A stretch of DNA of 16,956 nucleotides. It comes from Armatimonadota bacterium (GTDB taxonomy: Bacteria > Armatimonadota > Zipacnadia > Zipacnadales > UBA5352). Numbering within the stretch: the first letter of the stretch is position 1; every line of letters starts with the position of its first letter. This document shows positions 221 through 16,898 of the stretch, one piece after another. Below the pieces are notes generated by a model. The model made no database searches, was not told where the DNA came from, and saw only the letters and a program-made list of their open reading frames with translations. Where the stretch lies: NCBI GenBank assembly GCA_034722055.1, contig JAYENL010000327.1, forward strand, positions 1-16,956, given 5' to 3'. A program made the position numbers and the translations under genes.

Positions 221-253
221 AAACTGAATGGAGCGGGGCTACTCGCCCGCTCC
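221..253 (-). terminator. Possible intrinsic terminator overlapping the stop codon of the BNR gene
   Basis: 8-bp perfect stem ggagcggg (230-237) / cccgctcc (246-253), followed on the minus strand by ATTCAGTTT, which is only a weak U tract. Confidence 0.3.
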
Positions 254-1933: not shown

Positions 1934-1980
1934 GTTGCGTCCTCCTTCTGGGACGGACCCGACCCTTCACGCAGCGCACC

Positions 1981-4416
1981 TCACCCCTCGCCTGGCCGGC
2001 CGACCGCCTCCATGGTGGTGGCGTCGCGCGCCAGCTCCACCGTCACCTGCTCGCCGTCGCGCACGGTCAGCACCAGCGTCCGGGCGTCGGTTCGCAGCTC
2101 GCGGCCGTCAGGCAGCGGCACGGTCATCTCGCTCTCCCCGCGGTTGAATGCCACCACGGTCTCGCCCACCCGCACCGCGTCGATGCCCTCCGCGGACAGG
2201 TCCACTACCTCAGGCGGCTCATCGCCCGCATCACCGATGAGCATCGGCACCAGGAAGGTCGTCTCCTGGACGGGCCCGGACCTCAGCTCCAGCAGCCCGA
2301 TCTCGGCATCCTCATCCGGCGTGTGATCGCGCGTGGGGTGCACGTAGTCGGGCAGGTAGCGCCCGCTCTCGGCCTCATACTCCCCGGGCTGCAGCGGCAT
2401 GACGCCGAGCTGAGCCTCGCCGCGGCTGATGCGCCAGCCCCCGGCGACCTCCTCAGCCTGCCCAATGTGGTGCAGCAGCCACGAGAAGGTCCGCGGCTGA
2501 TTCGCGGCCAGGCGGTCGTGGCAGACGGCCAGGTCGCGGCCCGCCAGCACGAAGGTGCGGTCGAAGCGCGTCAGGCCCAGCTCCTCAGGGTAGGCCGAGG
2601 AGGGGTCAGCCTCGATGATGGTGACGCCGCCCTCGGTGGCGAAGCCAGTGATCGTGGCGCGGCCCGGCTTCGGCCCCGGCCACATCTCGCCGTCGCCGTA
2701 CTGGCCCTGACCGTCCACGAGGATGGTGTTGTGGTTGCGCGTCATCTTCTCGTAGGTGTAGCCGGGATCGTGCGCCAGCACCTCGCCGCGGCCAAAGAGC
2801 ACGAAGTGCCCCTGCTCGGGGTGATTGTGGCCGGTGCCGCCCAGCCCGTAGCGGGCGCACAGCTCCGCCCACAGATGCCCGCCCAGCGGCCGGCTGACCA
2901 GGACGGCGTAGCTGGCGCCATCCCTCCAGGAGCTGCGGGCGAAGGCCGTCTCGATGTCCGGGTAGTACTGGGCCACGGGCACCGCCGCGGTGGGACTCTG
3001 TGGCTCGAGGCTCTCATCCAGCCACAGGAGGTTGTAGGCTGTGCTGCTCGGCCCTCCGTTGAGCACCTCCGCGATCCCCTGCACCACCGGGTCCTGGTAG
3101 CGCTTCGCCTCCCACAGGATCAGCCGAATGGGCGGTCCGCCCTTCGGGACCGTGGTGTCCTCCAGCGTCGCACTGTGGCGCAGCCCCGGGTACACGTGGT
3201 GGAAGCGGAAGACGGCCTGGCCGTGCAGCCCCTGGTCGGCCCACGGCACCTGCAGGCCGGTGACCTGCTCGTAGAGGTCCACGAGCATGTAGAGGGTGGG
3301 CATCGAGAAGTCCCAGTAGGCGGGGCCCTCGTGGAAGCCACCGTCGGGGCTGAAGGTGATGAAGATCCGCTCCGTCCGGTCCCACGCCCACGCCAGCCAC
3401 TCACGGGCCTCTGGGACCTCGCCGTAGACCGCGGCGCTTGCCAGCACCAGCGACAGGTGCGCGAACCAGTAGTGGTTCTGCTGGAAGCTCAAGCCACCGC
3501 CGGTGCGGCCGTTCAGCGACAGCTCGTAGACATGCCGGGCCTGGCGGCTGAAGAGCTCCCGCAGGTCCGCGCGCAGGTCCTCGGGGATGTCCTGATAGAT
3601 CCAGTCGTAGGTCAGTGCCACGCCCTCCATGAAGTACTCCGCGTCCAGGTCGGCGCCCACGTGCGGGTAGGTGGCGGCCATCTCCAGCCACACCAGCAGG
3701 CGGTCGAGCTTCTCCTGACTCGGCTCCAGCACGTGCGAGAGCGCGTAGGTCGGCAGCCGCCGGAAGGCCCCACCGTTACGCTGGCCCGGTTTGAACTGGG
3801 GCGGATCGCGGTCCAGCGGCCCGGCCGGGCTGTAGTACTGCTGCACGACCGGATCCTGCAGCCGCGCCCGCATCCGATCGATGTCATCCGCAGTAAAGAA
3901 CATGCGCGGGTGCTGGTCCGCGAGCTCCGGCAGCATCGGCTCTCGCGGGACCTCCAGAACGTTGCGCCGCAGAGACACGCTGCGGAGCGTGCAGCCGGGG
4001 CCCTCCCGAAGGATGAGACGAACGCTGTGCTGGCCGGGCTCGCGAATGACCGCCGGCCCGGCGCGCCGGTCCATGGACTCCCGGGGCAGGGTCAGCGGGG
4101 CGTCGCCCTGCTCGCCATCTACGACGACCCAGAACGAGTCCGTGCCCTTGTTGGGCGCGCTGGCCTCCACCACCACGCTGTACTCGCCGGCCGCCAGCTC
4201 ACGCTGTATCTCCACGTAGAAGTCGCTGTCCGTCGCCACCACCACGGGCTGGCCGTCACGCTCCTGCAGCTCCATCCCCTCGCCATGCTCCAGCAGATCC
4301 TCGCCCGCCACCTCCACGACCGGCTCGGTTCCCAGGATCGGCGTGTCCGTCAGATGCTCGATGTCCACGCCCGAGAACGGTCCCACGACCAGTGCGGCCA
4401 GCAGCATCTCACGCAT
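1981..4416 (-). CDS. Heparinase II/III-like polysaccharide lyase (DUF4962-type alpha/alpha toroid plus Hepar_II_III domain) with a small N-terminal beta-sandwich
   Basis: ATG with GGAGGG upstream; motifs HPRMFFT, QQNHYW, DGGFHEGPAYW, RSSW, GHNHPEQGHF..GRGEVLAHDPG and HNTILVDGQGQ, all characteristic of heparinase II/III and oligo-alginate-lyase-like proteins. 47 bp upstream of the BNR gene and probably co-transcribed with it. Confidence 0.88.
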   Translation of the reverse strand: MREMLLAALVVGPFSGVDIEHLTDTPILGTEPVVEVAGEDLLEHGEGMELQERDGQPVVVATDSDFYVEIQRELAAGEYSVVVEASAPNKGTDSFWVVVDGEQGDAPLTLPRESMDRRAGPAVIREPGQHSVRLILREGPGCTLRSVSLRRNVLEVPREPMLPELADQHPRMFFTADDIDRMRARLQDPVVQQYYSPAGPLDRDPPQFKPGQRNGGAFRRLPTYALSHVLEPSQEKLDRLLVWLEMAATYPHVGADLDAEYFMEGVALTYDWIYQDIPEDLRADLRELFSRQARHVYELSLNGRTGGGLSFQQNHYWFAHLSLVLASAAVYGEVPEAREWLAWAWDRTERIFITFSPDGGFHEGPAYWDFSMPTLYMLVDLYEQVTGLQVPWADQGLHGQAVFRFHHVYPGLRHSATLEDTTVPKGGPPIRLILWEAKRYQDPVVQGIAEVLNGGPSSTAYNLLWLDESLEPQSPTAAVPVAQYYPDIETAFARSSWRDGASYAVLVSRPLGGHLWAELCARYGLGGTGHNHPEQGHFVLFGRGEVLAHDPGYTYEKMTRNHNTILVDGQGQYGDGEMWPGPKPGRATITGFATEGGVTIIEADPSSAYPEELGLTRFDRTFVLAGRDLAVCHDRLAANQPRTFSWLLHHIGQAEEVAGGWRISRGEAQLGVMPLQPGEYEAESGRYLPDYVHPTRDHTPDEDAEIGLLELRSGPVQETTFLVPMLIGDAGDEPPEVVDLSAEGIDAVRVGETVVAFNRGESEMTVPLPDGRELRTDARTLVLTVRDGEQVTVELARDATTMEAVGRPGEG

Positions 4417-4526
4417 TGTCAGCCCTCCAGTGTGACCTGCGCTCAGAGCATGGGGGTGCGCAGATCATGTTGGCGAGTGGATGGTGGCGGGGGATTCCTC
4501 GCCTGAGGCGTTAGCCCCTTCGTCGC

Positions 4527-5612
4527 TCAGCGCCCCGCCTGCGCGGCGACGTCATCGGCGACGGGCTCACCGCCGGTGCAGAGCAGTCCTGCGGCGAGCG
4601 CCTCGTCCTGGCGCAGCGCCGCCTTCACTCCAAGCTTCGCGAGCTTCAGGGCGTAGGGCAGCGTGGCGTGCGCCAACGCCAGCGTGGCCGTCCGGGGGAC
4701 CACGCCGGGGATGTTCGGCACCACGTAGTGGATAACGCCCTCCTCAACAAAGGTGGGCTGGGAGTGGGTGGTCCTGCGCAGCGAGGTCTCGATGGCGCCG
4801 CGCGGCTCTGCGGTGACGTCGATGATCACCGCCCCGTCGGGCATGCTGCGGACCATCTGGCGGGTCACCACGTGCGCCTGTGCATCCTGCAGGATCGTGG
4901 TGCCATTGACGAGCAGCCAGGCGCGGCTCAGCGCGGCGGCAATGGCGTCGGGCTCCGGGGCGGCGACGGGTGCGTCGGGCAGCAGATTCTGGAGCTGCGC
5001 GCGGCGCCGGCCGCGCAGCTCAAAGATCGTCGCTGCCGCGCCCAGGCCCAGCGCCGAGCGCGCCGCCCACTCCCCTACCGTGCCTCCGCCGATGACCACC
5101 ACCTCCGCCTGGCCGGCGCCGGGAATCTCCCCCAGCATCACGCCCGGGCCGCCGTGAACCGTCTGCAAGAGCTGTGCGCCGATCATCACCGCCATCTGCC
5201 CCGCAATGCGGCTCATCGGCTCCAGCAGCGGCAGCGAGCCGTTGGGCAGCCGCACGCGCTCGAAGGAGATGACGGTCATCTCGCTCTCCAGGAAGGCCGC
5301 CACCAGCCACGGGCGAGTCTCGGTGTGCGTGTATGAGAACAGCGCCGCTCCGCGCGGGAACAGCTTACACTCCTCCTCCGTGGGCTGCTTGACCTTGAGC
5401 ACCAGGTCGCCGACGGACCAGGTGCCGGCGGCATCGGCGGCGATGGTGGCGCCCGCCTCGCGGTACTCCCGGTCCGGGAAGCCGGCGCCCGCGCCGGCCG
5501 AGGCCTGGACGATGACCGCGTGTCCGGCATCGGCGAGGCGCCTGACGCCCTCCGGCGTGGCGCCTACGCGCATCTCGTTGTCCTGCACTTCCCTGGGGAT
5601 CGCGATCCTCAT
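4527..5612 (-). CDS. ald: Alanine dehydrogenase-family NAD-dependent oxidoreductase (divergent), 361 aa
   Basis: Start reassigned from 5738 to ATG 5612 (GGGAGG 8 nt upstream). MRIAIPREVQDNEMRVGATPEGV, LVLKVKQP, LPLLEPMSRIAG, Rossmann VVVIGGGTVG, TTHSQPTF and HYVVPNIPGVVPRTATLAL all match the AlaDH/PNT fold. Confidence 0.8.
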   Translation of the reverse strand: MRIAIPREVQDNEMRVGATPEGVRRLADAGHAVIVQASAGAGAGFPDREYREAGATIAADAAGTWSVGDLVLKVKQPTEEECKLFPRGAALFSYTHTETRPWLVAAFLESEMTVISFERVRLPNGSLPLLEPMSRIAGQMAVMIGAQLLQTVHGGPGVMLGEIPGAGQAEVVVIGGGTVGEWAARSALGLGAAATIFELRGRRRAQLQNLLPDAPVAAPEPDAIAAALSRAWLLVNGTTILQDAQAHVVTRQMVRSMPDGAVIIDVTAEPRGAIETSLRRTTHSQPTFVEEGVIHYVVPNIPGVVPRTATLALAHATLPYALKLAKLGVKAALRQDEALAAGLLCTGGEPVADDVAAQAGR

Positions 5613-5655
5613 CGGGCATGCCTCCCGCCGGCGTCTCGTCCCGGCCCTGGCGGTC

Positions 5656-5684
5656 AGTGTACCCCCGGCCCGCCGGGCGGTCAA
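5656..5684 (-). promoter_or_regulatory. Sigma70-type promoter for the ald-like gene
   Basis: Minus strand TTGACC (5684-5679), exactly 17 bp spacer, TACACT (5661-5656); the -10 ends about 44 bp upstream of ATG 5612. Its position supports the reassigned start. Confidence 0.7.
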
Positions 5685-5969
5685 CACATGACACAACGCT
5701 GCGGGCCTGGCCGGGACCCACTCGCTGATGGCAAGCATCCGCGCTGAGGTCCTGGCGCGGCGCGCGGCGAAGAGGATGTGCCGCGCGTCCGGCGAAACAA
5801 CCTTAGGCCGAGAGGGAGTTTCCTGTGCCAGATGCAGAGACCAGGATCGCGGAGATCACGACGGATGCCCTGTTCGCCATGCGCCTTGGCGAGCATCACT
5901 ACGAGATCACCGAGCGCGGCATCGTGCCTCATCCGTAGCCGCGCGGCGGCGACACAAAGGGAGATTGAC

Positions 5970-8900
5970 ATGCATCGCTTGACGCGAATCAACGGCCAAC
6001 ACATGCTCCGTATCACCGGCCTGACGGCGCTGTGCGCGCTGGTGGCGGTGGGCGCCTTCGGGCAGGAGGAGAGACAGACCACTATGCTCCACGACTGTGA
6101 CTCGCTGGAGGGCATCAGCGTCTCCGGCGGCGCCGACTGGCCGGAGACGACGCTGGAGCTTAGCACCGACGAGCAGTACGTGTCCCAGGGTGAGGCCAGC
6201 GTGCATCTGTCCGGAGTCTCGCCGGCCGACGCCACCGGGAACTCGTACCTGTCGGTGGACTTCGACCTCGGGGGCGTGGACCTGACACGCAAGGCCATCC
6301 TCTTCGATATCTGGACGGGCGTCCCCGAGAACACCCAGGCCCTCTATGTCCGCGCCTACAACGCCGGCGGCCAGTGCGTGCTCAGCTACCTCAACTGGAG
6401 CAGCCCCATCAGCGGCGAGCGCACCACGGTGGAGCTGGTGAGGAGCTTCAGCGACGTGCTGGCCTGGGAGCAGAAGATGGTGGAGAGCGACGACCTCAGC
6501 AACGTCGCCAGGCTCCGCTTCTACATCGGCACCCACGGCAAGGGCGTGCCCTTCAACTGCTACATCGACAACATCCGCATGACGACCAGCGACATCCGCA
6601 GCTTCATGGACGTGGATGAGGCCAAGCCGAGCGTCCGGCGGACTCCCATCGTGGAGGACGGGGAGCCGCGGGCGATCATCGTGGCGCCGGCCGATAACGA
6701 GTGGGGGGCGGTGGCCGCCGAGGTGCGGGCGATGGTCCGCGACCTCACCGGCGCCGAGCTGCCTATCGCCTCCGCGGACGACATCGATGATGAGGCGTTG
6801 CGCGCGCAGACCGCCATCGTGGTCGGCAACGTCGTGGCCAACCCCCGGATGCTCTACCTCTACTCGCACGGCTACCTCTTCGCCGATGACGTCTACCCCG
6901 GCGACGGCGGCTACGAGGTGCGCACGGTGCACGATCCCTGGGGGACGGACAGCAACGCGCTCTCCATCGGCGCCAGCGATCCGGCGGGCGCCAGGGCGGG
7001 CATCACCGCCCTCCGCGAGCGGCTTGAGGCCGGCGATGACCTGGTGCTGGAGGAGCCGCTGCTGCTGGTTGAGCTCTCGGACGATGCCACGCAGCGGTGG
7101 GGCCGGGCCTTCCAGGTCGAGCCTGATGACGAGTGGCTCGAGAACCTGAAGGAGCAGGCCGAGCGCGATCTGGAGACCGGCCGGCACACGGGCCTGTTCG
7201 GGCGCGCCGCCTCGGTCGGCCTCGACTACCAGCTCACGCGCAAGGACGGCTATGCCCGCGGCTTCGTGTGGCTGCTGCAGCGCGCCAAGGAGCACCGCGA
7301 CACCGATCCGCAGACCTACGGTGGCCCGTGGGGCATGGACTCGGACTTCCGGGCGTACATGGTGCTCCCGGCCTGGGACGTCGTGGAGGAATCGCCGGCG
7401 CTGACGGATGAGGAGCGCCTGACGGCCACGCGCGTGCTGTTTCAGTGGATGCAGGAGGCAGTGGTGCCGTCTGCCGCCGGCACCGTCGGCAGCACCCGCG
7501 TCCGCCACAACCACCAGACCTTCCCGGCCCTGGGCTGCATGTTCGCCGGCGAGTACTTCCAGAAGCACTACCAGGCCGGCGAGGGCAGGCGGTGGCTGAC
7601 CATCGCGGACAAGTGCTTCCAGTTCCAGGCCCAGGCCTTCAAGCCGCACGAGGACTGCAACGGCTACCAGTGGCTGACGCTGTATCACACCCTGGCCTAC
7701 TGCCTGGCCCGCCCCCACTTCGAGTACTTCGACAACGGAAACGCCGCCCGCGACGCCGACTACGCCATCATGGGCATGGACAACCTCGCCTACCAGGTGA
7801 CCTACGGTGATACCGGCGCCTACACCGGCTGGTGGTCCGAGATGCCCTTCCTGCACGGCGCGGAGTTCTACTACCGCGACGGCCGCTACGCCTGGGCCAT
7901 CAACAAGAAGCACGAGGTCTCCGGGCGACTCAGCACCGGATGGTACGCCACTGACAGCGAGCCGACCGTGCCGGAGGACCTGATCGGGGCCAAGGCCTTC
8001 CCGCTCGACCCGCACTACTACCAGTCCCACGGCCCCGCGGAGGACCTGCCGGTGGAGCAGACCGTGGACAAGGTGGTCTTCCGCAACGGCTTCGATCCCC
8101 AGGACCAGTACCTGCTGCTCGACGGGCTCAACAACGGCGGCCACCACCACTACGACGGCAACTCCATCTCCCGCATGACCGCCAACGGCCGCATCTGGAT
8201 CGCCGACGCCTCCTACATGGCCTCGCTGCCCAAGTACCACTCCACCGCGCTGATCTTGCGCGACGGCCAGTCCGAGGCCCTGCCAAGCTACTGCCAGATG
8301 GAGCACATGCGCGACCTGCCCAGCGTGGGCTTCTCGGAGACCGCGCTGACCGACTACGCGGGCATGGACTGGCACCGCAACATCTTCTGGCTCAAGGGCG
8401 AGTGGTTCCTGGTCGCCGACGAGATGCAGGCCCGGGAGGCCGGCGACTACAGCGTCCGAATGCTCTGGCACACCATCGGCGACGTGGAGCTGGGCGAGGA
8501 CGGCCTCTCCGTGGAGCAGCAGGGGCAGCATTGCGCCATCCGCATGACGCCGGAGCTGCGCCTGATGCTCGAGCACGATGAGGAGTACGGGGCCAACTGG
8601 GGCGGCTACGAGTTCATCGACGAGGCCGTGGTGCACAAGATGACCGGCATCTGGAACGGGCGGCTGGAGGAGGGCGAGCAGGTCACCCTGTTCACGCTCC
8701 TGCATCCCTCCGGCGAGCAGCCCTCCGCTCTGCATCTCACGCGCCTGGGGCCGAACCAGGTGGCAGTCACCGGAGAGGGCGCTGACCCCACGATCGTCGC
8801 CGTCGGCGGCCCCGATGAGCGCATCTCGCTGGCCGGCCAGGCGCGCATCCGCGGTCACGCAGCGGTGCTGCGGCCCGGACTGCTGGCGCTGCTGGACGCC

Positions 8901-10796
8901 GAGAGCCTGGAGTATCAGTTCCAGGCCCTGGACCTCTACGGCGGCCAGGATGTGGAGATGAGCCTCGGCGATGGCGACGTGGTGTCCTACTGGAGCGCCG
9001 GACGGACCGCGGAGCCCTCCACGCAGGCCGCGCGCGAGTACTACCCGGAGGTGGCGGGCGTCCCCGCCGAGCAGGTGCGGGGCATGATCGAGGCCGCCGT
9101 GGCCGCCGCGCCACCGATAGTGAGACCCGAGGTGGCGGGAGCCGACGCGCCGGTGCTCGAGGAGCTATGGAGCTACCGCGAGACGCTAAAGAGCTACCTG
9201 CTGACCGGCAACCGGGCCATGTTCGCCGCCGTGGACACCGGCCTGGAGATCTCGGCCGAGCCCGACCCTCTGCCCCACAACGTCTTCGATCAGCCCCAGG
9301 AGCAGACCAACACGGTTGACAACATCGTGGACGGCGGGGTGCAGAGCACCGGGGACTGCGTCATGTGGGACGACGACCAGACCGTGACGCTGCGGATGGA
9401 CTTCGACCGCGTCTACGAGGTCGAGGACATCATCGTGAAGGCCTGGTTCGCGACCTCCTCGAGCAAGGACAAGCTCTTCCAGGTGCAAGACATCCGCATC
9501 GAGGCGTCCGATGACGGCTTCGGGCAGGACACCCGCGAGATCGCGCAGCTCACCGACACCGAGATGCACGGGAACTGGGGCGCGCCGGGCCACGCGCCGC
9601 ACAACTACGAATTCGAGGGCCTCGACACTCACGCCCGCAACCTGCGGCTGACGCTTACGCCGCGGGAGGGCACCGCCATCTACATCGCCGAGATCGAGGT
9701 CCGGGGGACCGCCGAGGGCATCGAGGAGATGGCGCTGCAGCCGGACTCGGGCGTGCCGGTGCACTCCTTCGTCGCGCTGCACGCCGCGGACCTCGATGGG
9801 GACGGCGCCGACGAGATCGTCGCCGGCTCCACCAACGGCAAGGTCTACGTCTTCGCGGCCGACGGCTCCCTGGCCTGGACGCGGGAGATCGGCGGTCGCG
9901 TGCTGGCGGTGAGCACCGCCCGGCTGGCCGGACATGACGGGCCGGTCATCGTCGCCGGCGGGACGGGCGCCACCGTCTTCGCCTACACGCCCGAGGGCGA
10001 GGAGCTGTGGAGCTTCCCGATTCCCCGCTACAAGGGCACCGGCGTCATCACCACCCTCTTCCCGGCCGACCTCACCGGCGATGGCAACCACGCCGTGGTC
10101 GCCGGCACAGAGGCCTGGCGCTACTACGCCGTCGATGCGCAGGGCCAGGAGATCTGGCGGGTGGAGAGCGTGCGCAAGTCCACGGTGGGGGCCGCCGCGG
10201 ACCTCGACGGCGACGGCAGGGACGAGGTGGTGGCCGGCACCGAGTATCACTGGTGGTCCGTCTACGATGACGACGGCTCGCAGATGTGGCGCTACAGCAC
10301 GCGCACCGGACCAGGCGTCAACGATGTGGTAGCGGAGGACGTCACCGGCGACGGCGCGCCGGAGGTGGTCTTCGGCGGCCGCGACAGCTTCCTCCACGCC
10401 CTCTCAGCGGACGGCACGCTGCTGTGGAAGTTCAACACCGGCGGGGAGGTCATGGGCCTGGCCGCGGTCCCGGCGGAGCAGGGCATGGACCTGATCGTCG
10501 GCTCCCGCAGCTTCAATCTCTACCGCGTGGACGGTGAGGGCAGGCTGGTGTGGCGCACCGACCTGGGCTATCCGGTGATGGGCGTGGCCATCTGCGCGTC
10601 GCCTGACGGAGAGCGAGTTGCGGCCGTCACGGAGGCCGGGGCGGTGCTGGTGGCCGCGCCCGACGACGGCGCTCTCGTCGGCCGCCACGAGCTGGGAGCC
10701 GCGGGCATCCGCACCATCGCCGCCGACCTGAACGGCGACGGCATCGAGGAGATCGTGGCCAGCAGCCGCGACGGGAATCTGACCGTGCTGCGTTAG
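5970..10796 (+). CDS. Large secreted modular protein (~1608 aa): CBM-like domain, GH20/GH115-type N-terminal alpha/beta domain, heparinase II/III-like lyase core, discoidin (F5/8C)-like domain, FG-GAP/PQQ-like beta-propeller
   Basis: Start reassigned from 5778 to ATG 5970 (AAAGGGAGA upstream; ATG 6003 is an alternative). Signal peptide ...LTALCALVAVGAFG. AIIVAP...VRDLTGAELPI motif. Lyase-like motifs HNHQ, PHEDCNGY, GGHHHYDGNS and YHSTALI. C-terminal DLDGDG repeats. Strong GC3 bias in this frame. Confidence 0.85.
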   Translation: MHRLTRINGQHMLRITGLTALCALVAVGAFGQEERQTTMLHDCDSLEGISVSGGADWPETTLELSTDEQYVSQGEASVHLSGVSPADATGNSYLSVDFDLGGVDLTRKAILFDIWTGVPENTQALYVRAYNAGGQCVLSYLNWSSPISGERTTVELVRSFSDVLAWEQKMVESDDLSNVARLRFYIGTHGKGVPFNCYIDNIRMTTSDIRSFMDVDEAKPSVRRTPIVEDGEPRAIIVAPADNEWGAVAAEVRAMVRDLTGAELPIASADDIDDEALRAQTAIVVGNVVANPRMLYLYSHGYLFADDVYPGDGGYEVRTVHDPWGTDSNALSIGASDPAGARAGITALRERLEAGDDLVLEEPLLLVELSDDATQRWGRAFQVEPDDEWLENLKEQAERDLETGRHTGLFGRAASVGLDYQLTRKDGYARGFVWLLQRAKEHRDTDPQTYGGPWGMDSDFRAYMVLPAWDVVEESPALTDEERLTATRVLFQWMQEAVVPSAAGTVGSTRVRHNHQTFPALGCMFAGEYFQKHYQAGEGRRWLTIADKCFQFQAQAFKPHEDCNGYQWLTLYHTLAYCLARPHFEYFDNGNAARDADYAIMGMDNLAYQVTYGDTGAYTGWWSEMPFLHGAEFYYRDGRYAWAINKKHEVSGRLSTGWYATDSEPTVPEDLIGAKAFPLDPHYYQSHGPAEDLPVEQTVDKVVFRNGFDPQDQYLLLDGLNNGGHHHYDGNSISRMTANGRIWIADASYMASLPKYHSTALILRDGQSEALPSYCQMEHMRDLPSVGFSETALTDYAGMDWHRNIFWLKGEWFLVADEMQAREAGDYSVRMLWHTIGDVELGEDGLSVEQQGQHCAIRMTPELRLMLEHDEEYGANWGGYEFIDEAVVHKMTGIWNGRLEEGEQVTLFTLLHPSGEQPSALHLTRLGPNQVAVTGEGADPTIVAVGGPDERISLAGQARIRGHAAVLRPGLLALLDAESLEYQFQALDLYGGQDVEMSLGDGDVVSYWSAGRTAEPSTQAAREYYPEVAGVPAEQVRGMIEAAVAAAPPIVRPEVAGADAPVLEELWSYRETLKSYLLTGNRAMFAAVDTGLEISAEPDPLPHNVFDQPQEQTNTVDNIVDGGVQSTGDCVMWDDDQTVTLRMDFDRVYEVEDIIVKAWFATSSSKDKLFQVQDIRIEASDDGFGQDTREIAQLTDTEMHGNWGAPGHAPHNYEFEGLDTHARNLRLTLTPREGTAIYIAEIEVRGTAEGIEEMALQPDSGVPVHSFVALHAADLDGDGADEIVAGSTNGKVYVFAADGSLAWTREIGGRVLAVSTARLAGHDGPVIVAGGTGATVFAYTPEGEELWSFPIPRYKGTGVITTLFPADLTGDGNHAVVAGTEAWRYYAVDAQGQEIWRVESVRKSTVGAAADLDGDGRDEVVAGTEYHWWSVYDDDGSQMWRYSTRTGPGVNDVVAEDVTGDGAPEVVFGGRDSFLHALSADGTLLWKFNTGGEVMGLAAVPAEQGMDLIVGSRSFNLYRVDGEGRLVWRTDLGYPVMGVAICASPDGERVAAVTEAGAVLVAAPDDGALVGRHELGAAGIRTIAADLNGDGIEEIVASSRDGNLTVLR
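9789..10793 (+). repeat. Intragenic FG-GAP/VCBS-like Ca-binding repeats forming a beta-propeller
   Basis: DLDGDGADEIVAGS, DLTGDGNHAVVAG, DLDGDGRDEVVAG, DVTGDGAPEVVFG and DLNGDGIEEIVAS alternate with G-x-x-x-W strands (GSLAW, GEELW, GQEIW, GSQMW, GTLLW, GRLVW). Confidence 0.85.
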
Positions 10797-10800
10797 GCCT

Positions 10801-12477
10801 TCAGTCGAGCTTGAAGACGACCGCGTCGTCCCACCAGACGACGTCCTGCTCGGACTGCTGGCCGCCGACCCATAGCAGGAGCACAAGTCGGCCGGCGCCC
10901 TCCGGCACGGTCACCACACCGACCATGCGCTGCCACTCGCCCTCTGATCCGTGCGTGCTGAGGAAGCGGTCTTTGTGCTGGGCGTGCCAGGAGCCATCGG
11001 CCGTCTGCCACCGGACCCTGACGGACGGGGTCCCCTCGCCCTGCAGCCGATACCACGCCGCCACCGCGCAGCGCTCACCCGGGGCGACCGCAACCGACTG
11101 GATCAGGCAGCCCTGTCGCACATCGCGCATGGTCGCTGCGCCCGGCGCCTCGTGCCCGACCTCGCGGTCCCAGCCCGGAGTGCCCTCCGAGCCGGCCGCG
11201 GCGCTCTGCCAGAAGCTCCATGCGGCCGGAGCGTTCTCCCGCTCCCAGTCCGCCGCCTGAGGGCCCTCGGGAGGCTCGGCGGTCTCCGCCGAGAAGTCAC
11301 CGTTGGTCAGCACGCTCTGCACGCCCTCAGCGGCCTCGGCGAGCACGCGCGCGGCGTGCTCCACCGGATCGGTCACCGCCCACAGCACCTCCTCGATGCC
11401 GGGCAGCAGCTCCGACCATCGCTGTTCGCCGGCACGGGGGTGCGGCGTGGGCCACCAACTCGCCTGCTCGCCGTAGAGCCAGACGTACTCATCGGCGGCG
11501 TTGAGCGCGCTCACCAGGTTCTCCTCAAGCCGCTGCAGTGGGGTCTGATCGCCGGGGTCGATGTACCAGGAGGAATCGGGCGGGTTGACATACGCGTCGA
11601 GATACACCCCGAAGCTCACCTGCACCTGCGCGCGGTAGGCGTAGCGATTCTCCGGTGAGATTAGCTGCTGGCAGGTGTTGCGGATCAGATTCGCGGCGTG
11701 CAGGTACTCGACCTCGCTGTTGAAGAGATAGGCGCGCTCGCAGCCATCGACGAGCGTCACGTCCTCGGTGACCGCGTCGAGCCAGCCGTCGATGAATGCC
11801 GGGTAGAGGCCGTACCTGTGTCCTGCCAGAGAGAGCGACGGATTGCGGGCCTGCTGGTTGAAGATCGAGAGCATGAAGAGGCTGAAGATGGTGATGTCGG
11901 GGTACTCCTCGACGACCGCCGCCATGACCTCCCGGCCCCGCTGACGGGCCATCTCTTCGTACTCCTCGAAGCTGTGCTCGGCGGCCTCCGACTGCTCCTG
12001 ATAGTCGAACTGCGGGTGACGGTAGCTCTCGGGATCGAAGAGGAGGCCGGCTATCCCGCCCTCCTTCGCCACGCGTGCGGCCGTCCGCCAGTGCTCCACA
12101 ATGATGGCCCAGCCCTCGTCGTCGAACCAGTCCACATCACCGGGTGTGGCCTTGATGTCCAGGAAGCAGTCAGTCAGCCGCTGTGGCCGCGCGGCGGCGA
12201 GATCCTCGATGATCTGATCGATGGCCTCCTGCTCCCAGACCTCGCGGCTGTGGGCGAAATCCAGGAACGGGGTGCCATTGCGACCCGTGAAACGCAGGGA
12301 GGAGCCCCGAAAGGGCTGCTGATCCATCAGCTCGAAGTTCTCCCGCAGTCGCTGCGCATTCGGCATATCCCAGCCGACGGCAATCAGCTTCTTCTGATCC
12401 GCAGCCACCTCACCGCGCAGTCCGACGACTGCGCAGATGAGCGCGAAGGCCGCGATCAGTCCCCGTGTGCGTAGCAT
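10801..12477 (-). CDS. Secreted hypothetical protein: putative TIM-barrel glycoside hydrolase domain plus C-terminal CBM4/9-like domain (paralog A), 558 aa
   Basis: ATG with GAGAGGG upstream; signal peptide MLRTRGLIAAFALICAVVG; GLLFDPESY motif; C-terminal domain starting VLTNGDFS and ending VWWDDAVVF; colinear with the neighbouring paralog. Confidence 0.8.
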   Translation of the reverse strand: MLRTRGLIAAFALICAVVGLRGEVAADQKKLIAVGWDMPNAQRLRENFELMDQQPFRGSSLRFTGRNGTPFLDFAHSREVWEQEAIDQIIEDLAAARPQRLTDCFLDIKATPGDVDWFDDEGWAIIVEHWRTAARVAKEGGIAGLLFDPESYRHPQFDYQEQSEAAEHSFEEYEEMARQRGREVMAAVVEEYPDITIFSLFMLSIFNQQARNPSLSLAGHRYGLYPAFIDGWLDAVTEDVTLVDGCERAYLFNSEVEYLHAANLIRNTCQQLISPENRYAYRAQVQVSFGVYLDAYVNPPDSSWYIDPGDQTPLQRLEENLVSALNAADEYVWLYGEQASWWPTPHPRAGEQRWSELLPGIEEVLWAVTDPVEHAARVLAEAAEGVQSVLTNGDFSAETAEPPEGPQAADWERENAPAAWSFWQSAAAGSEGTPGWDREVGHEAPGAATMRDVRQGCLIQSVAVAPGERCAVAAWYRLQGEGTPSVRVRWQTADGSWHAQHKDRFLSTHGSEGEWQRMVGVVTVPEGAGRLVLLLWVGGQQSEQDVVWWDDAVVFKLD

Positions 12478-12588: not shown

Positions 12589-14268
12589 TCAGAGCCTGAA
12601 GACCAGCACGTCATCCCACCAGATGACGTCGGCGGCGGACCGCTGGCCGCTGGCGTTCAGCAGCGGCACCATGAAGCCCGCCCCCTCCGGCACCGTGACC
12701 ACGCCCACCATCTGCGCCCACTCGTCGCGCGGGCCCGTGGTGTCGATCATCACGTCGAGGTGCGGGACGTGCCACGCGTTGTCCGGGGTCTGCCAGCGCA
12801 CCCGGATCGACGCATCACCCTCGCCCTCGATCCTCCGCCAGGCAACCACGCCGTAGCGCTCACCGGGATTGACCGCGACCTTCTGCAGGAAGCACCCGCT
12901 CGTCACCCCGGCCATGCGCGCCGAGCCCGGCTCCTCATGCCCGGTCTCGCGGTCCCACGCGCGCGTCCCCGAGGACTCTCGGTGCTGCCAGAAGCTCCAG
13001 CCCGGGGGCGTGCCCTCCTCCTCCCAGTCCGGCTGCGGCTCCCCGCCCTCCTCCGTCACGCTCTCCGGCTGGAAGTCGCCGTTGACCAGCAGGTTCTGCA
13101 GGTCAGCCCCCGCCTCGTGCATCTTCTGCAGCGCGAAACCGACCGGATCGGCGGCCGCGCGGAGCTGGTCCTCGATCCCCGGCAGCGCCTCGGGCCAGCG
13201 CTGTGCATCTGCGCGCGGATGCGGCGTGGGCCACCAGGAGGCCTTCTCGCCGTAGACCCACACGTACTCATCGGCCGTCTGCAGGGCGTAGCTCACGTTC
13301 TGGCCGAGCCGCTCGACGCGCTCCATCCCCTTCGGGTCGATGTACCACCTGTCATCCGGCGGGTTGATGTAGGGGTCGAGGTAGACGCCGAAGCCGACCT
13401 GCACCTGCGCCCGATACTTCGCCCTGTTCTCCGGCGAGACCAGCCGCTGGCAGTCACTCTTGATGCGATTGTAGGCGCCCAGGTAGTCAATCTGGCTGTT
13501 GAAGCGATAGGCCTGCTCGCAACCGTCCACGAAGGTGACGGTCGGCGGCGCCTCATCCAGCCAGCCATCGATGAACCCCGGCAGCAGATCGTAGGTGCCG
13601 CCGGCCAGCGCCTGGATGGGGTTCGTGCGCTCGGCGGCCATGGAGTTGACCGAGTTCATAAAGTAGCAGAAGAGGGTGATCTCCGGATACTCCTCAGTGA
13701 TCGCCTGCATCACCTCCCCGCCACGCTGCCGCGCCTTCTGGTGATACTCGACGAAGGTATGGTGCTCGAACTGTGGCTGCGAGGTCCACGCGAACTGCCG
13801 GTGCGGCTCGCGATAGGGCTCGGGGTCGAAGAGGATCCCGATCAGCCCGCCCTCGCGCGCCACGCGGGCGGCGATGCGCCAGTGCTCCACGATGCTGGCC
13901 CAGCCCTCATCGTCGAACCAGTCCACGTCGCCGGGGTTCGCGTTGACCAGCAGGAAGCGCTCCCACCCCGCCTTGGACGCCGCGTAGGCGGCCTGCAGGT
14001 CCTCGATCACCTGCTCGATGGCCGCCATGTCCCACTCCTCGTGCTGGAAGGCGAACCGGAACGCCGGGGTCTGACCCCGCCCGGTAAAGCGGATGACCTG
14101 GCCCTGGAAGGGCCGTTGCTCGACCATGTCGATCATGTTACGCAGTCGCTCGGGGTTGACCTGATCCCACCCAGTCTGGATCAGCTTCTTGCGGGGAAGG
14201 TCCTGGGCGGACACGCTCCTGGTCGATGCGACCAGGACGGCCAGTGCAAGGATCGCGAGTGTGCGCAT
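12589..14268 (-). CDS. Secreted hypothetical protein: putative TIM-barrel glycoside hydrolase domain plus C-terminal CBM4/9-like domain (paralog B), 559 aa
   Basis: Start reassigned from 14469 to ATG 14268 (GGGAGG 6 nt upstream; signal peptide MRTLAILALAVLVAS; length then matches paralog A). GILFDPEPY motif; NLLVNGDFQ...IWWDDVLVF tail. Confidence 0.8.
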   Translation of the reverse strand: MRTLAILALAVLVASTRSVSAQDLPRKKLIQTGWDQVNPERLRNMIDMVEQRPFQGQVIRFTGRGQTPAFRFAFQHEEWDMAAIEQVIEDLQAAYAASKAGWERFLLVNANPGDVDWFDDEGWASIVEHWRIAARVAREGGLIGILFDPEPYREPHRQFAWTSQPQFEHHTFVEYHQKARQRGGEVMQAITEEYPEITLFCYFMNSVNSMAAERTNPIQALAGGTYDLLPGFIDGWLDEAPPTVTFVDGCEQAYRFNSQIDYLGAYNRIKSDCQRLVSPENRAKYRAQVQVGFGVYLDPYINPPDDRWYIDPKGMERVERLGQNVSYALQTADEYVWVYGEKASWWPTPHPRADAQRWPEALPGIEDQLRAAADPVGFALQKMHEAGADLQNLLVNGDFQPESVTEEGGEPQPDWEEEGTPPGWSFWQHRESSGTRAWDRETGHEEPGSARMAGVTSGCFLQKVAVNPGERYGVVAWRRIEGEGDASIRVRWQTPDNAWHVPHLDVMIDTTGPRDEWAQMVGVVTVPEGAGFMVPLLNASGQRSAADVIWWDDVLVFRL

Positions 14269-14486
14269 GACACGCCTCCCCGACCAAAGATGATGTGCCC
14301 CAGAGGCCATTCCGTGCCGGCCGCGATCATTCCTGCCCCTATGGCGCTGGCCATCCTCCGGGCTGCTGGGCGAGCTGTCGGCGGAGTGTCGCGGCAGGCC
14401 TCCCGTCGATCTGTGGGGCCGCGATGCCCTGCTCAAGTCAGCCTGCCCGTTCGGTGACTGGTACGACACCCCGCTGCGGGACGGGT

Positions 14487-14523: not shown

Positions 14524-14555
14524 GCGGATCTCGCGATCGTCCGGGAGGAATGGCC

Positions 14556-16898
14556 ATGCAGGACGCCGACACGCTCAGGGACATGCTGCTGCGGATGTAC
14601 CGTATCCGACTGTTCGAGGAGCGGCTGAAGGACTTCTATGACTACCGCGGCTTCGCCGGCGGGGAGATCTCCGACGATCCGGGGGCCACCGGCGAGGACC
14701 TGCTGTCATGCATGCTCTACGACTTCGCCTCCGAGGGCATGATCGGCGGTGCCGTGCACCTCTACATCGGCGAGGAGGCCATCGCGGTCGGCGTCTGCGC
14801 CGAGCTGCGCGACTCCGACTTCATCACCAGCTACCACCGAGGCCACGGCCACGCCATCGCCAAGGGCCTGGAGCTTGACCGGATGCTCGCGGAGCTGATG
14901 GGCCGGGAGACCGGCTACTCCCGGGGCTGCGGGGGCTCCATGCACATCTACTCCTACGAGCATGGGCTGCTGGGCGGCAACGGGATCATCGGAGCGGGCA
15001 TTCCGCTGGCCCTGGGGCCGGCCTTCGCGGCCAAGTACCGCGGCGAGGACAACGTGGCCGTGGCCTTCTTCGGCGATGGCGCGGTGAACCAGGGGACCTT
15101 CGGTGAGTCCCTGAACCTCGCGGCGCTGTGGGAGCTGCCCGTGATCTTCGTGTGCGAGAACAACCTGTGGGCGGCCTCGACGCCTGCGGCGATCGCTCAC
15201 TCGCAGCCCGGCCTGGCGGCGCGCGCGGAGCCCTACGGCATCCCGGGCGTCACCGTGGACGGCCAGGACGTGCTGGCGGTCAACGAGGTGGCGAGCGAGG
15301 CCGTGGAGCGGGCCCGCGCGGGCGGGGGCCCGACCATGATCGAGGCCAGGACCTTCCGCTTCGTCGGCCACGCCGGCGGGGGGCGGAGCGCCCACCGGGA
15401 TCAGGAGGCGCTGGAGGAGTGGATGCAGCGCGACCCCATCACGCTCTTTGAGCAGCGCCTGCGCCAGGAGGGCGTCATGACCGCCGGGGAGCAGGAGCAG
15501 ATGCGGGAGCGGGTCAGCGGCGAGGTGGATCGCGCCGTGGCGTTCGCGTGCTCCAGCGACTTCCCCGAGCCCCACACGCTGGAGACCATCGACGGCCCCC
15601 GCGTCATGCCGCCGGCCGAGCCCCAGCGGGCGGACGAGGACGCGGTGGCCAGCGCGCTGGTCGATCCTCGGATGATCACCCGTGTCGCCGAGATCGCCCG
15701 GGAGTACACCGGCCGGGCGCCGCTGCCGTTCAGCGAGCTGTTCCAGGAGGGCATGGCCGCGGTGGCGCACGCCGCCGAGCGCCACGATCCCGACTCCGGG
15801 CGCAGCTTCGAGGAGTACGCCCAGTGGTGGATTCGCCAGCGCATTACCAGGGCCATCGCTGACCGGCAGCGCGACATCTGGGACGACCGCACGGTGGTCT
15901 GGGTGCGGCCCAGGCGAGAGCCGGAGGAGCCGGGGCGCAGCATCACCTTCGCCGCCGCGGTCGCCGAGGCCCTGCGGGAGGAGATGGACCGCGATGAGCG
16001 CGTCTTCGTCATCGGCGAGGACATCGGCCCGGTCACCGAGCGCGAGAGTCTGTGGGAGCAGTTCCGCGAGCGCCGCGTGTGGCAGACGCCCATCTCGGAG
16101 GCGGCCTTCACGGGGCTGGCCACCGGCGCGGCGGCGGTGGGCCTGCGGCCGGTTGTGGAGATCATGTACTGCGACTTCGTGACCGTCTGCTTCGATCAGA
16201 TCGTCAACCAGGCGGCGAAGCTGAATCTCATGTCCGGCGGCAGGATCGACGTGCCGCTGGTCATCAAGACCCCGGCAGGCTGCGGGACGCGCGAGGGGGC
16301 TCATCACTCCGGCTCGCACGAGGCCTGGTTCATGCACGCGCCGGGGCTGAGGGTGGTCATGCCCTCGAACGCCTACGACGCCAAGGGGCTGCTCAAGACC
16401 GCTATCCGCGAGGACGGTCCGGTGATGTTCATCGAGCACCGCCTCCTGCGGCGGATGGAGTTCGAGGTGCCCGAGGGGGAGTGGACCGTGCCCTTCGGCG
16501 AGGCCGCGATTCGTCACCAGGGCGATGACATCACGGTGGTGACCACCTCCTACGCAGTGCCCAAGGCCCTGCGGGCGGCCCGGGCACTGGAGGACGAGAT
16601 CGGCGTGGAGGTCATCGACCCCCGCACGCTGGTGCCGCTGGACGTGGGGGCGATCTACGCGTCCCTGCGCAAGACCGGGCGGCTGCTGGTGGTGCACGAG
16701 GCGCCGGCCCGGGCCGGCGCCGGCGCGGAGATCCTCCGGCGGGTGACCGAGGGCCCGGGCTTCGATCTGCTGCGGGCCGCGCCGCGGGTGCTGGGCCGCG
16801 CTGACACGCCCATGCCCTACAGCCCGCCCCTGGAGGACGCCTGCATCCCGCAGCCGAGCGACATCGCCGAGACGATCCGGGAGATGGTGCGCGGGTAG
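14556..16898 (+). CDS. Fused ThDP-dependent dehydrogenase E1 alpha+beta (pyruvate/acetoin/2-oxoacid dehydrogenase family) with an internal sigma70 region 2-like domain, 780 aa
   Basis: Start reassigned from 14295 to ATG 14556 (GGGAGGA upstream). Alpha half: VHLYIGEEA, YHRGHGH, GGSMH, ThDP motif GDGAVNQG...CENN (15072-15164). Beta half from ~15936: AEALREEM...IGEDIG, TPISE, EIMYCDF..DQIVNQAAK, HHS, FIEH, EVIDPRTLVPLD, KTGRLLVVHE. One uninterrupted frame. Confidence 0.93.
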   Translation: MQDADTLRDMLLRMYRIRLFEERLKDFYDYRGFAGGEISDDPGATGEDLLSCMLYDFASEGMIGGAVHLYIGEEAIAVGVCAELRDSDFITSYHRGHGHAIAKGLELDRMLAELMGRETGYSRGCGGSMHIYSYEHGLLGGNGIIGAGIPLALGPAFAAKYRGEDNVAVAFFGDGAVNQGTFGESLNLAALWELPVIFVCENNLWAASTPAAIAHSQPGLAARAEPYGIPGVTVDGQDVLAVNEVASEAVERARAGGGPTMIEARTFRFVGHAGGGRSAHRDQEALEEWMQRDPITLFEQRLRQEGVMTAGEQEQMRERVSGEVDRAVAFACSSDFPEPHTLETIDGPRVMPPAEPQRADEDAVASALVDPRMITRVAEIAREYTGRAPLPFSELFQEGMAAVAHAAERHDPDSGRSFEEYAQWWIRQRITRAIADRQRDIWDDRTVVWVRPRREPEEPGRSITFAAAVAEALREEMDRDERVFVIGEDIGPVTERESLWEQFRERRVWQTPISEAAFTGLATGAAAVGLRPVVEIMYCDFVTVCFDQIVNQAAKLNLMSGGRIDVPLVIKTPAGCGTREGAHHSGSHEAWFMHAPGLRVVMPSNAYDAKGLLKTAIREDGPVMFIEHRLLRRMEFEVPEGEWTVPFGEAAIRHQGDDITVVTTSYAVPKALRAARALEDEIGVEVIDPRTLVPLDVGAIYASLRKTGRLLVVHEAPARAGAGAEILRRVTEGPGFDLLRAAPRVLGRADTPMPYSPPLEDACIPQPSDIAETIREMVRG
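15633..15878 (+). other. In-frame sigma70 (RpoD-like) region 2.1-2.4 domain between E1 alpha and E1 beta
   Basis: RVAEIAREYTGRAPLPFSELFQEGMAAVAHAAERHDPDSGRSFEEYAQWWIRQRITRAIADRQRDI aligns with group-1 sigma [65 protein letters not shown]. The WW dyad is at 15825-15830. Confidence 0.88.

Follow-up and report, generated by a model that had tools for sequence, protein, structure and literature searches.

An RpoD-derived sigma domain 2 in the linker of a fused E1 enzyme of Armatimonadota: a variable, exchangeable module reused in other proteins of the class

Sigma-derived domains that do not act as sigma factors have been described, as in the alphaproteobacterial anti-anti-sigma factor PhyR, which combines sigma2- and sigma4-like parts of extracytoplasmic function (ECF) origin with a receiver domain and has a cognate anti-sigma factor, NepR (accessible part of PMC4598750). 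Trigger enzymes (Commichau and Stulke 2008, via PMC3901225) are metabolic enzymes with a domain acting in gene expression; the examples given in the accessible part of that source rely on RNA binding, a DNA-binding domain, phosphorylation or binding of a regulator, and none on a sigma domain. [quoted passage not shown] The case presented here is a gene of an Armatimonadota bacterium (contig JAYENL010000327.1), contained in a stretch of 16 956 nucleotides that was analysed as a whole and is called the window below. It encodes the alpha and beta chains of a thiamine diphosphate (ThDP)-dependent E1 enzyme as one protein, with region 2 of a housekeeping sigma factor (sigma-2) folded into the linker between them. 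A sequence-only reading of the window had proposed a device coupling metabolism to transcription or, alternatively, an rpoD fragment captured and tolerated as a linker.

Compared with domain 2 (regions 2.1–2.4) of the group 1 sigma-70 factors RpoD/SigA, the insert shares sequence, four-helix fold, a DEEAV-like start and a longer loop, but it lacks regions 1.2, 3 and 4, a proline splits its helix 2.1, its core-binding face has drifted, its melting face is acidic, and it is embedded in an enzyme and dispensable. Unlike PhyR, it is sigma-2 only, comes from RpoD, lies inside enzymes and is polymorphic, with no cognate anti-sigma factor among the neighbours scanned; the PhyR combination of sigma2- and sigma4-like parts with a receiver is absent from the E1 fusion. 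In contrast to trigger enzymes, its transcription-relevant residues are unconserved and the domain is optional. Likewise, the cyanobacterial arrangement is inverted, sigma-2 being here the accessory inside enzymes. The likeness to NLR decoys is an analogy only; the hosts here are bacterial metabolic enzymes and not immune receptors. Compared with heterotetramer-type E1 enzymes (PdhA/PdhB, AcoA/AcoB, BkdA) and their alpha–beta fusions, the protein has the same domains, ThDP motif and catalytic Glu and His, but scores below the pyruvate dehydrogenase (PDH) cut-offs, has no E2 or E3 gene in its locus and shows an alpha segment of ∼30 amino acids (aa) and a shorter beta loop, and has a folded sigma-2 domain in its linker. 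No published sigma-2/E1, sigma-2/esterase or sigma-2/BNR fusion was found in the open-licence literature and bioRxiv preprints. On the best reading, the RpoD sigma-2 piece behaves as a lineage-specific mobile module and not as a transcription switch; that it is a disarmed, dispensable, folded surface appendage, a passenger without a dedicated regulatory partner, is given a probability of about one half.

Origin and distribution of the inserted domain

Domain search of the 780-aa product recovered the architecture predicted by the sequence-only reading, namely E1_dh (aa 62–339), Sigma70_r2 (aa 376–439; 46.5 bits for a cut-off of 24, E 3.2e-12), Transket_pyr (aa 462–631) and Transketolase_C (aa 648–770) (Pfam). 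Models of RpoD/SigA type in NCBIfam (∼1e-14 to 1e-16) rank above those of FliA/SigB type, every sigma model remaining far below its cut-off, and phmmer against the Protein Data Bank (PDB) returns SigA/RpoD chains (E 7e-14 to 5e-10; E. coli RpoD 385–450). The absence of regions 1.2, 3 and 4, also predicted, is supported by the lack of any Pfam match to them up to E 0.1 across the protein. In the AlphaFold2 model of the whole protein, based on an alignment of 98 rows (mostly E1 fusions, plus 10 sigma-2 profile matches), the insert forms helices at 361–368, 371–384, 392–409 and 418–442, with a predicted local distance difference test (pLDDT) of 88–97 for the block 361–430, 82 for 431–440 and <50 for 442–456. 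The frame is intact and its codon style resembles that of the flanks, as first noted (GC content at third codon positions, GC3, of 0.915 in the insert versus 0.948 and 0.947 in the flanks); an intact frame is by itself no evidence of selection because the beta part lies downstream. The features discussed below are the following (window coordinates, strand).

14544..14548, +: Shine-Dalgarno-like GGAGG, 7 nucleotides 5′ of the ATG at 14556, from sequence
14556..16898, +: fused ThDP-dependent E1 alpha-beta gene with internal sigma-2 module, an open frame of 780 aa
14556..15575, +: E1 alpha part (Pfam E1_dh, aa 62–339)
15576..15626, +: Pro-rich N-terminal spacer, aa 341–357; the left edge of the allele swaps is at aa 351–356
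15627..15878, +: RpoD-derived sigma-2 module, aa 358–441, four helices; Sigma70_r2 (aa 376–439) at 15681–15872
15744..15752, +: QEG of the module (E. coli 406–408), retained in the window allele
15780..15830, +: region 2.3 segment (E. coli 418–434), charge –2 versus +3 in RpoD; F427, Y430 and A431 retained
15879..15935, +: low-confidence C-terminal spacer, aa 442–460; the right edge of the allele swaps is at about aa 456
15936..16898, +: E1 beta part (Transket_pyr 462–631, Transketolase_C 648–770)

The window comes from a fragmented, metagenome-type assembly (330 contigs), as would suit an assembly chimera or an incidental capture confined to one genome. This explanation retains practically no probability, being refuted by recurrence: the insert is present in independent assemblies of nine other genomes and in 12 protein clusters, and contigs span both junctions. 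A Logan contig of run X1 matches the gene over its full length with no mismatch, and both junctions are bridged by a contig of run X2 (four runs of one study; X1 may be the source of this DNA). The insert DNA also differs from host rpoD, with the same codon at only 18 of the 32 shared residues, so that a recent gene conversion from host rpoD is unsupported as well.

The donor is the RpoD of this class; an RpoD origin had been supposed by the sequence-only reading. This RpoD is the best genome match of the insert (50% over aa 360–441), the window insert being identical to host RpoD at 32/62 positions, and in the family genomes an insert profile scores RpoD at 77 bits versus ≤43 for other sigma factors. 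RpoD region 2 is nearly invariant in the 16/16 family genomes where it was found; in these 16 RpoDs, its DEEAV start follows a long insertion within the non-conserved region, and the loop joining regions 2.1 and 2.2 exceeds that of SigA/RpoD from other bacteria by one residue. The E1 inserts start at a DEEAV-like motif and have the same longer loop. Most E1 alleles are 21–45% identical to RpoD, and a clade uniting the E1 inserts with the family's own RpoD is weakly rejected (approximately unbiased test, p-AU 0.015). The long insert of class RpoD, ∼350 aa between regions 1.2 and 2 (G000:C59:27324-29462 (–); L258:1627-4500), consists of Big_5 Ig-like domains by Pfam in the copy of genome G394 and in P0147/P0255; RpoD frames across the order are mostly ∼690–760 aa, and a diverged RpoD paralog with a Big_5 remnant is found at L289:1234-2745 (G394:C361).

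The insert-bearing fusion was found in 10/18 family genomes (6/8 genus labels), the G001 copy being split over two contig ends, and a short-linker fusion in 5/18; with these queries, no ortholog was found in the other three (83–91% complete). The protein collection holds 12 long clusters with the insert and 18 short ones. A precomputed Sigma70_r2 label is present on only 6/12 long clusters, and therefore the domain decays below detection. Searching with the insert region (aa 340–465) gave five sigma-type proteins and no E1 fusion; the fusions were found by alignment search, in which fused short-linker E1 forms are common (4699 matches). In a tree of the E1 core (linker removed), the insert rows (13/13) belong to a single clade of 24 rows (99/99) that also includes 11 short ones, and the fewest changes between insert and short forms is six. 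In the orthologs sampled from the order's other families (5 loci read), alpha and beta are encoded separately. The parsimonious reading is that the insert was gained once, in the ancestor of six genera of one family. Among the 150 best representative matches of 42718, 149 were screened for a region 3–4 continuation (the E1 fusion fragment P0127 was set aside), which is missing in only 1/149, P0189. The latter is a 563-aa protein with three sigma-2 repeats and without region 3/4.

A retained fold, lost binding faces and exchanged linkers

What the inserts keep was determined in 15 distinct alleles (from 19 rows, 4 identical inserts being dropped), with E. coli numbering anchored on the phmmer PDB alignment and a one-residue gap placed by hand in the 2.1–2.2 loop. 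A415, Y430 and A431 are kept in 15/15 alleles, F427 and L412 in 14/15, E417 in 13/15, and G408, G411, D420, I435 and I439 in 12/15; position 419 is aromatic or His in all 15, and the W433–W434 pair (WW) is present in 10/15. F419 and F427 are folding residues, and D403, Q406, E407 and N409 core-binding residues, according to the accessible part of bioRxiv 10.1101/2020.09.07.285775. The four core-binding residues are kept in 10/15, 2/15, 8/15 and 0/15 alleles, respectively (E, Q, E and M in the window allele). In region 2.3, which bears the basic and aromatic melting surface of RpoD, Y421, K422, K423, Y425, K426, T429 and T432 are kept in 0/15, the charge of segment 418–434 passes from +3 in RpoD to between –2 and –5 in 14/15 alleles, and that of the whole domain from +2 to between –3 and –8 in 15/15. 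No allele keeps L402, M413 or R385, which we take to be functional residues of RpoD.

The residue list of the sequence-only reading was right for the window allele, which retains Q406-E407-G408, Y430, W433, W434, Q437, T440 and R441 and has the substitutions F419H, Y425R, S428E and T429E, to which N409M, M413A, L402S, Y421P, K422D, K423S and K426S are to be added. The retained residues are a property of this basal allele and not of the family; it looked functional because it is among the most RpoD-like. A conserved coupling device binding RNA polymerase (RNAP) or the –10 element is not supported by the comparison of alleles, given Q406 in 2/15, N409 in 0/15 and an acidic melting segment in 14/15. 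The tolerated-linker alternative is closer to the evidence, but misses allele swapping and reuse in other proteins.

Despite this divergence, the fold persists. The most diverged insert, of type B (see below), folded without alignment at pLDDT 80.7; its best structural match is E. coli sigma70 (1sig; Z 9.8, root-mean-square deviation, rmsd, 2.1 over 75 aligned residues), and matches ranked 1–29 all belong to the sigma family, with the caveat that helical bundles reach such Z values by chance. Foldseek gave no match at E ≤ 0.001 for this model (best 0.04, with sigma chains at the top). These comparisons show that the four-helix fold is kept, the DNA face lost and the core-binding face unconserved. 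Judged by its sequence, the E1 fusion is not a sigma factor: it has Sigma70_r2 only, and neither the core-binding residues of region 2.2 nor the melting surface of region 2.3 is conserved. A complex prediction of the insert (10-row alignment) with the host beta′ clamp helices scored 0.13 (mark 0.32), was run without controls and is not evidence either way.

The insert is under relaxed but real purifying selection, with a ratio of non-synonymous to synonymous rates (omega) of about 0.13–0.45. In a codon model of 10 sequences, omega is 0.125–0.14 in the insert (0.02–0.03 in GY, Goldman–Yang, models), whereas alpha has 0.089, beta 0.074 and region 2 of RpoD 0.003; on this measure, the insert evolves ∼40 times faster than RpoD region 2. 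Non-neutral evolution, one of the outcomes for which the sequence-only reading had called for a check, is supported, omega = 1 being rejected (2dlnL 171). Mean identity is 42.5% in the insert and 81–84% outside it, and the tree of the insert is three times as long as those of the flanks. In the closest pair, G000/G001 (44 codons), dN is 0.153 and dS 0.343 in the insert, with an alpha dN of 0.052; for this pair alone, neutrality is not rejected (p 0.12).

Four linker types occupy a single locus, namely A (WW kept), B, C and the short S. The insert tree rejects two groups of the E1 tree (p-AU 3e-5 and 4e-4). P0010 (type A) and P0277/P0278 (type C) differ by 0.3% in the core and by 61% in the insert, with all differences but two confined to aa 356–456; P0014 (A) and P0024 (S), 0.9% different in the core, include one enzyme without the domain; conversely, P0013 and P0277 have an identical insert and cores that differ at 53 positions. 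Overall, swaps are limited to aa 351/356–456. The G010 assembly has both type A and type C at one locus with identical flanks, carried by two contig ends that bear local assembly scars; the same-species allele pairs come from short-read metagenome assemblies, and chimeras are possible for these pairs. It follows from the swap pattern that whole-linker alleles are exchanged within and between species, and from near-identical enzymes without it that the insert is dispensable. Because the E1 flanks are conserved, the exchange probably proceeds by homologous recombination through them. A paralog acting as a silent cassette was considered and rejected, each genome having one locus with the same neighbours whichever allele it carries.

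Reuse of the module, host enzyme and locus

Insert profiles were run against 67 genomes of the order and 79 of the class, and the matches listed included at least four further kinds of sigma-2 module case, all with the class-specific longer loop. An acetyl-xylan-esterase-like (AXE1/dienelactone-hydrolase-like) hydrolase at L229:6030-8402 (G021:C96) has an internal Sigma70_r2 (E 3.7e-18) that is 64% identical to the RpoD of its own genome; a decayed copy is found in G048 (L235, C197), and the G051 copy has its start at a contig end. This module is present or absent within genus g12, five close orthologs having none, including that of G031 at 81% identity. A BNR/sialidase-like propeller at L257:944-2398 (G022:C105) has, in one of its propeller loops, an inserted sigma-2 of 89 aa (E 1.6e-8), which an ortholog in G037, 66% identical, lacks. 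Stand-alone, decayed open reading frames (ORFs) of sigma-2 only are found in G028 and G048 (L230:2361-2771; L232:2356-2640), and L287:748-2724 (G424:C35) joins an ECF sigma factor, a bifunctional nuclease domain and RpoD-derived regions 1.2-2-3, without region 4. The L230 ORF lies beside an alcohol-dehydrogenase-like gene and the L232 ORF beside argininosuccinate synthase; the stand-alone copy P0315 is already labelled ‘sigma factor’. The modules group together only at 93/93 and 63/69 in two trees, on long branches, and their origin may lie in a single capture or in repeated ones.

On reading, a further 19 mid-scoring candidates proved to be ordinary RpoD, FliA, SigF/SigB, SigH or sigma-GGDEF proteins and were set aside. 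L248, L249, L250, L251, L290, L293 and L294, from several families of the class, are SigB/F-type sigma factors with a long C-terminal part, which is GGDEF by Pfam in the two scanned (L248 and L250).

The host enzyme appears catalytically intact and of the 2-oxoacid/acetoin-dehydrogenase type, with all three Pfam domains of a heterotetramer-type fused E1 (E1_dh, Transket_pyr and Transketolase_C). Across 53 orthologs, with or without the insert, no variation is seen in the ThDP motif or at the catalytic His/Glu positions wherever a sequence covers them: in alpha, H94-R95, GDG173-175...NN202-203, R268 and H272 in every ortholog covering them, and in beta, E488, E515, F541, Q548, N551 and H584 in 53/53. 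Among these, H272, E515 and H584 are presumably catalytic. In alpha, D173, N202 and H271 are named in the accessible part of PMC2663715. In a fold comparison, human PDH E1 beta matches the beta part with an rmsd of 1.6. The PDH equivalog cut-offs of NCBIfam are missed (TIGR03182, 338 < 393.85; PRK09212, 317.5 < 321). Two features of this E1 subfamily may bear on substrate, an extra low-confidence segment of ∼30 aa near the alpha N-terminus (window 14640–14735) and a beta active-site loop four residues shorter than in solved E1 beta chains (window ∼16020–16050).

The E1 fusion is an orphan: it occurs in one copy per genome, in the same neighbourhood whichever allele is present, with no E2 or E3 gene adjoining it and no regulator, defence or mobility gene among the neighbours scanned in G000 and relatives. 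Conserved downstream are genes for a Gfo/Idh/MocA oxidoreductase, a CBS protein and a large protein (G000 contig C200, overlapping the window end); upstream in relatives, a P-type heavy-metal ATPase and a molybdopterin/Fe-S cluster are often found. An E2 catalytic domain is matched once in each of the 18 family genomes, mostly in a short frame and away from E1. In G000, this match (C257:20124-20885) is a bare catalytic domain without lipoyl domain, in a sugar-metabolism context; C104 encodes a separate lipoyl-domain protein, and at least four further E1-like genes are present. In the window, two tandem paralogous, secreted-looking proteins (10801–12477 and 12589–14469, –) are divergent from the E1 gene and give no family match above cut-off (weak CBM_4_9 in one). 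Positions 239–10796 form a glycan-degradation neighbourhood that is not kept beside E1 in relatives; they encode a BNR protein, a heparinase II/III-like protein, alanine dehydrogenase and a beta-propeller/heparinase-like protein of 1600 aa.

Rival readings and meaning

According to the favoured scenario, a sigma-2 domain of ∼85 aa from class RpoD would have entered the E1 alpha–beta linker in the ancestor of the six genera. On an abundant enzyme, a free sigma-2 able to bind RNAP or single-stranded DNA (ssDNA) would do harm, and the binding faces would have been purged, selection retaining the four-helix fold while the DNA face became acidic and the core face drifted. The resulting module on the enzyme surface would neither melt promoters nor compete well for RNAP; the conserved E1 flanks would let linker alleles A, B, C or S recombine, and the compact, insertable domain has been reused in other enzymes of the class. 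Several observations weigh against this scenario. A pure passenger should be lost, since short in-frame alleles recombine in, yet the insert is present in 10/15 gene-bearing genomes. Deeply diverged alleles that cross species, with tract edges hugging the insert, are also expected from balancing selection. In type C, G012 and G010 differ by 0 amino-acid and 4 synonymous changes (p ∼0.004), and therefore even an allele without WW and QEG is constrained. In G000, the E1–RpoD pair is the only internal capture of a housekeeping domain (20 low-copy partial matches among 3341 ORFs, judged by eye), and random domain capture is therefore uncommon. Finally, the omega estimates are blurred by a GC3 near 0.92 and by recombination, saturation and recombination biasing them downward.

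The main rival is a variable decoy or sensor. Here sigma-2 would lure proteins that take hold of the housekeeping sigma factor at domain 2, be they anti-sigma or appropriator proteins of phages or regulators of sigma in the host; binding would soak up the attacker or alter the host enzyme, and alleles would be under frequency-dependent selection, as are the integrated domains of plant NLRs. This is a possibility to be taken seriously, although clearly less probable than the passenger; the same tentative standing applies to its extension to a class of Armatimonadota/WS1-like bacteria using sigma-2 as an exchangeable integrated decoy or sensor in at least three unrelated enzymes and in stand-alone form, with the effect of binding passed on to, or buffered by, the host enzyme. 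Such a decoy would fit a locus with four linker types that disagree with the E1 tree (AU p 3e-5 and 4e-4), the two alleles between identical flanks in G010 with swaps limited to aa 351/356–456, a fold retained while the surface varies fast, and the same domain in three unrelated cytoplasmic-looking enzymes, in each of which it is present or absent among kin; a harmless bait also needs to lose DNA and core binding. However, no defence or regulatory gene was seen among the neighbours scanned, the domain-free short allele belongs to the same polymorphism, a decoy should resemble RpoD with its invariant region 2, whereas most alleles are only 21–45% identical to it, and the same-species allele pairs were assembled from short-read metagenomes, a possible source of chimeras. 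A trigger-enzyme device, whose domain would bind the beta′ clamp helices or –10 ssDNA and couple ThDP or substrate state to transcription, is unlikely. It could draw on the window allele (QEG, Y430, W433, W434, Q437, T440 and R441 kept; 32/62 residues identical to host RpoD), on WW in 10/15 alleles and on the G021 esterase module, 64% identical to its RpoD, but it is at odds with Q406 in 2/15, E407 in 8/15 and N409 in 0/15 alleles, an acidic melting loop in 14/15, the absence of regions 1.2, 3 and 4, near-identical enzymes that lack the domain and an omega ∼40 times that of RpoD region 2. Sequence evidence thus argues against a conserved transcription role of the insert.

Two further explanations have little probability. 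The region 2.3 pocket takes the flipped –11A, and it can be imagined that in the insert the same pocket (aromatic 419, Y430) binds an adenine nucleotide or cofactor and tunes E1 allosterically, as Y430 is invariant in 15/15 alleles and position 419 aromatic or His in 15/15. This small-ligand sensor is improbable: folding accounts for these residues (F419 and F427, in the accessible part of bioRxiv 10.1101/2020.09.07.285775), the phosphate-holding basic residues are gone, the pocket rim is acidic, and the domain is dispensable and also occurs in unrelated hydrolases. Slightly less probable still is a selfish in-frame mobile element that has an insertion mechanism of its own and happens to encode sigma-2, comparable with the Rickettsia palindromic element or an intein. 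Similar boundaries in three host proteins, the clean 89-aa propeller-loop insertion and the stand-alone copies are what it would produce, but none of the 5/5 module regions has convincing terminal repeats, palindrome or target-site duplication (only short repeats at chance level), G000 has one copy, at most two modules per genome occur among the matches listed in 79 genomes, and no mobility gene was seen among the neighbours scanned.

The finding combines known kinds, domain capture and sigma mimicry; there is a genuine possibility that it represents a decoy system of a new kind. Few bacterial sequences are as constrained as sigma-70 region 2 (omega 0.003 here), and this lineage offers a natural series in which it has been freed from transcription. 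The series separates the folding residues that are kept from the DNA- and core-binding faces that are shed, on three enzyme scaffolds, and with matched insert-free controls at 99%, 81% and 66% identity, capture, disarming and allele swapping become directly testable. It also calls for caution in annotation, stand-alone sigma-2 copies such as P0315 carrying ‘sigma factor’ labels. If the modules were baits for phage or host proteins that target sigma factors, bacteria would have their own equivalent of integrated decoys, made from a part of the core transcription machinery.

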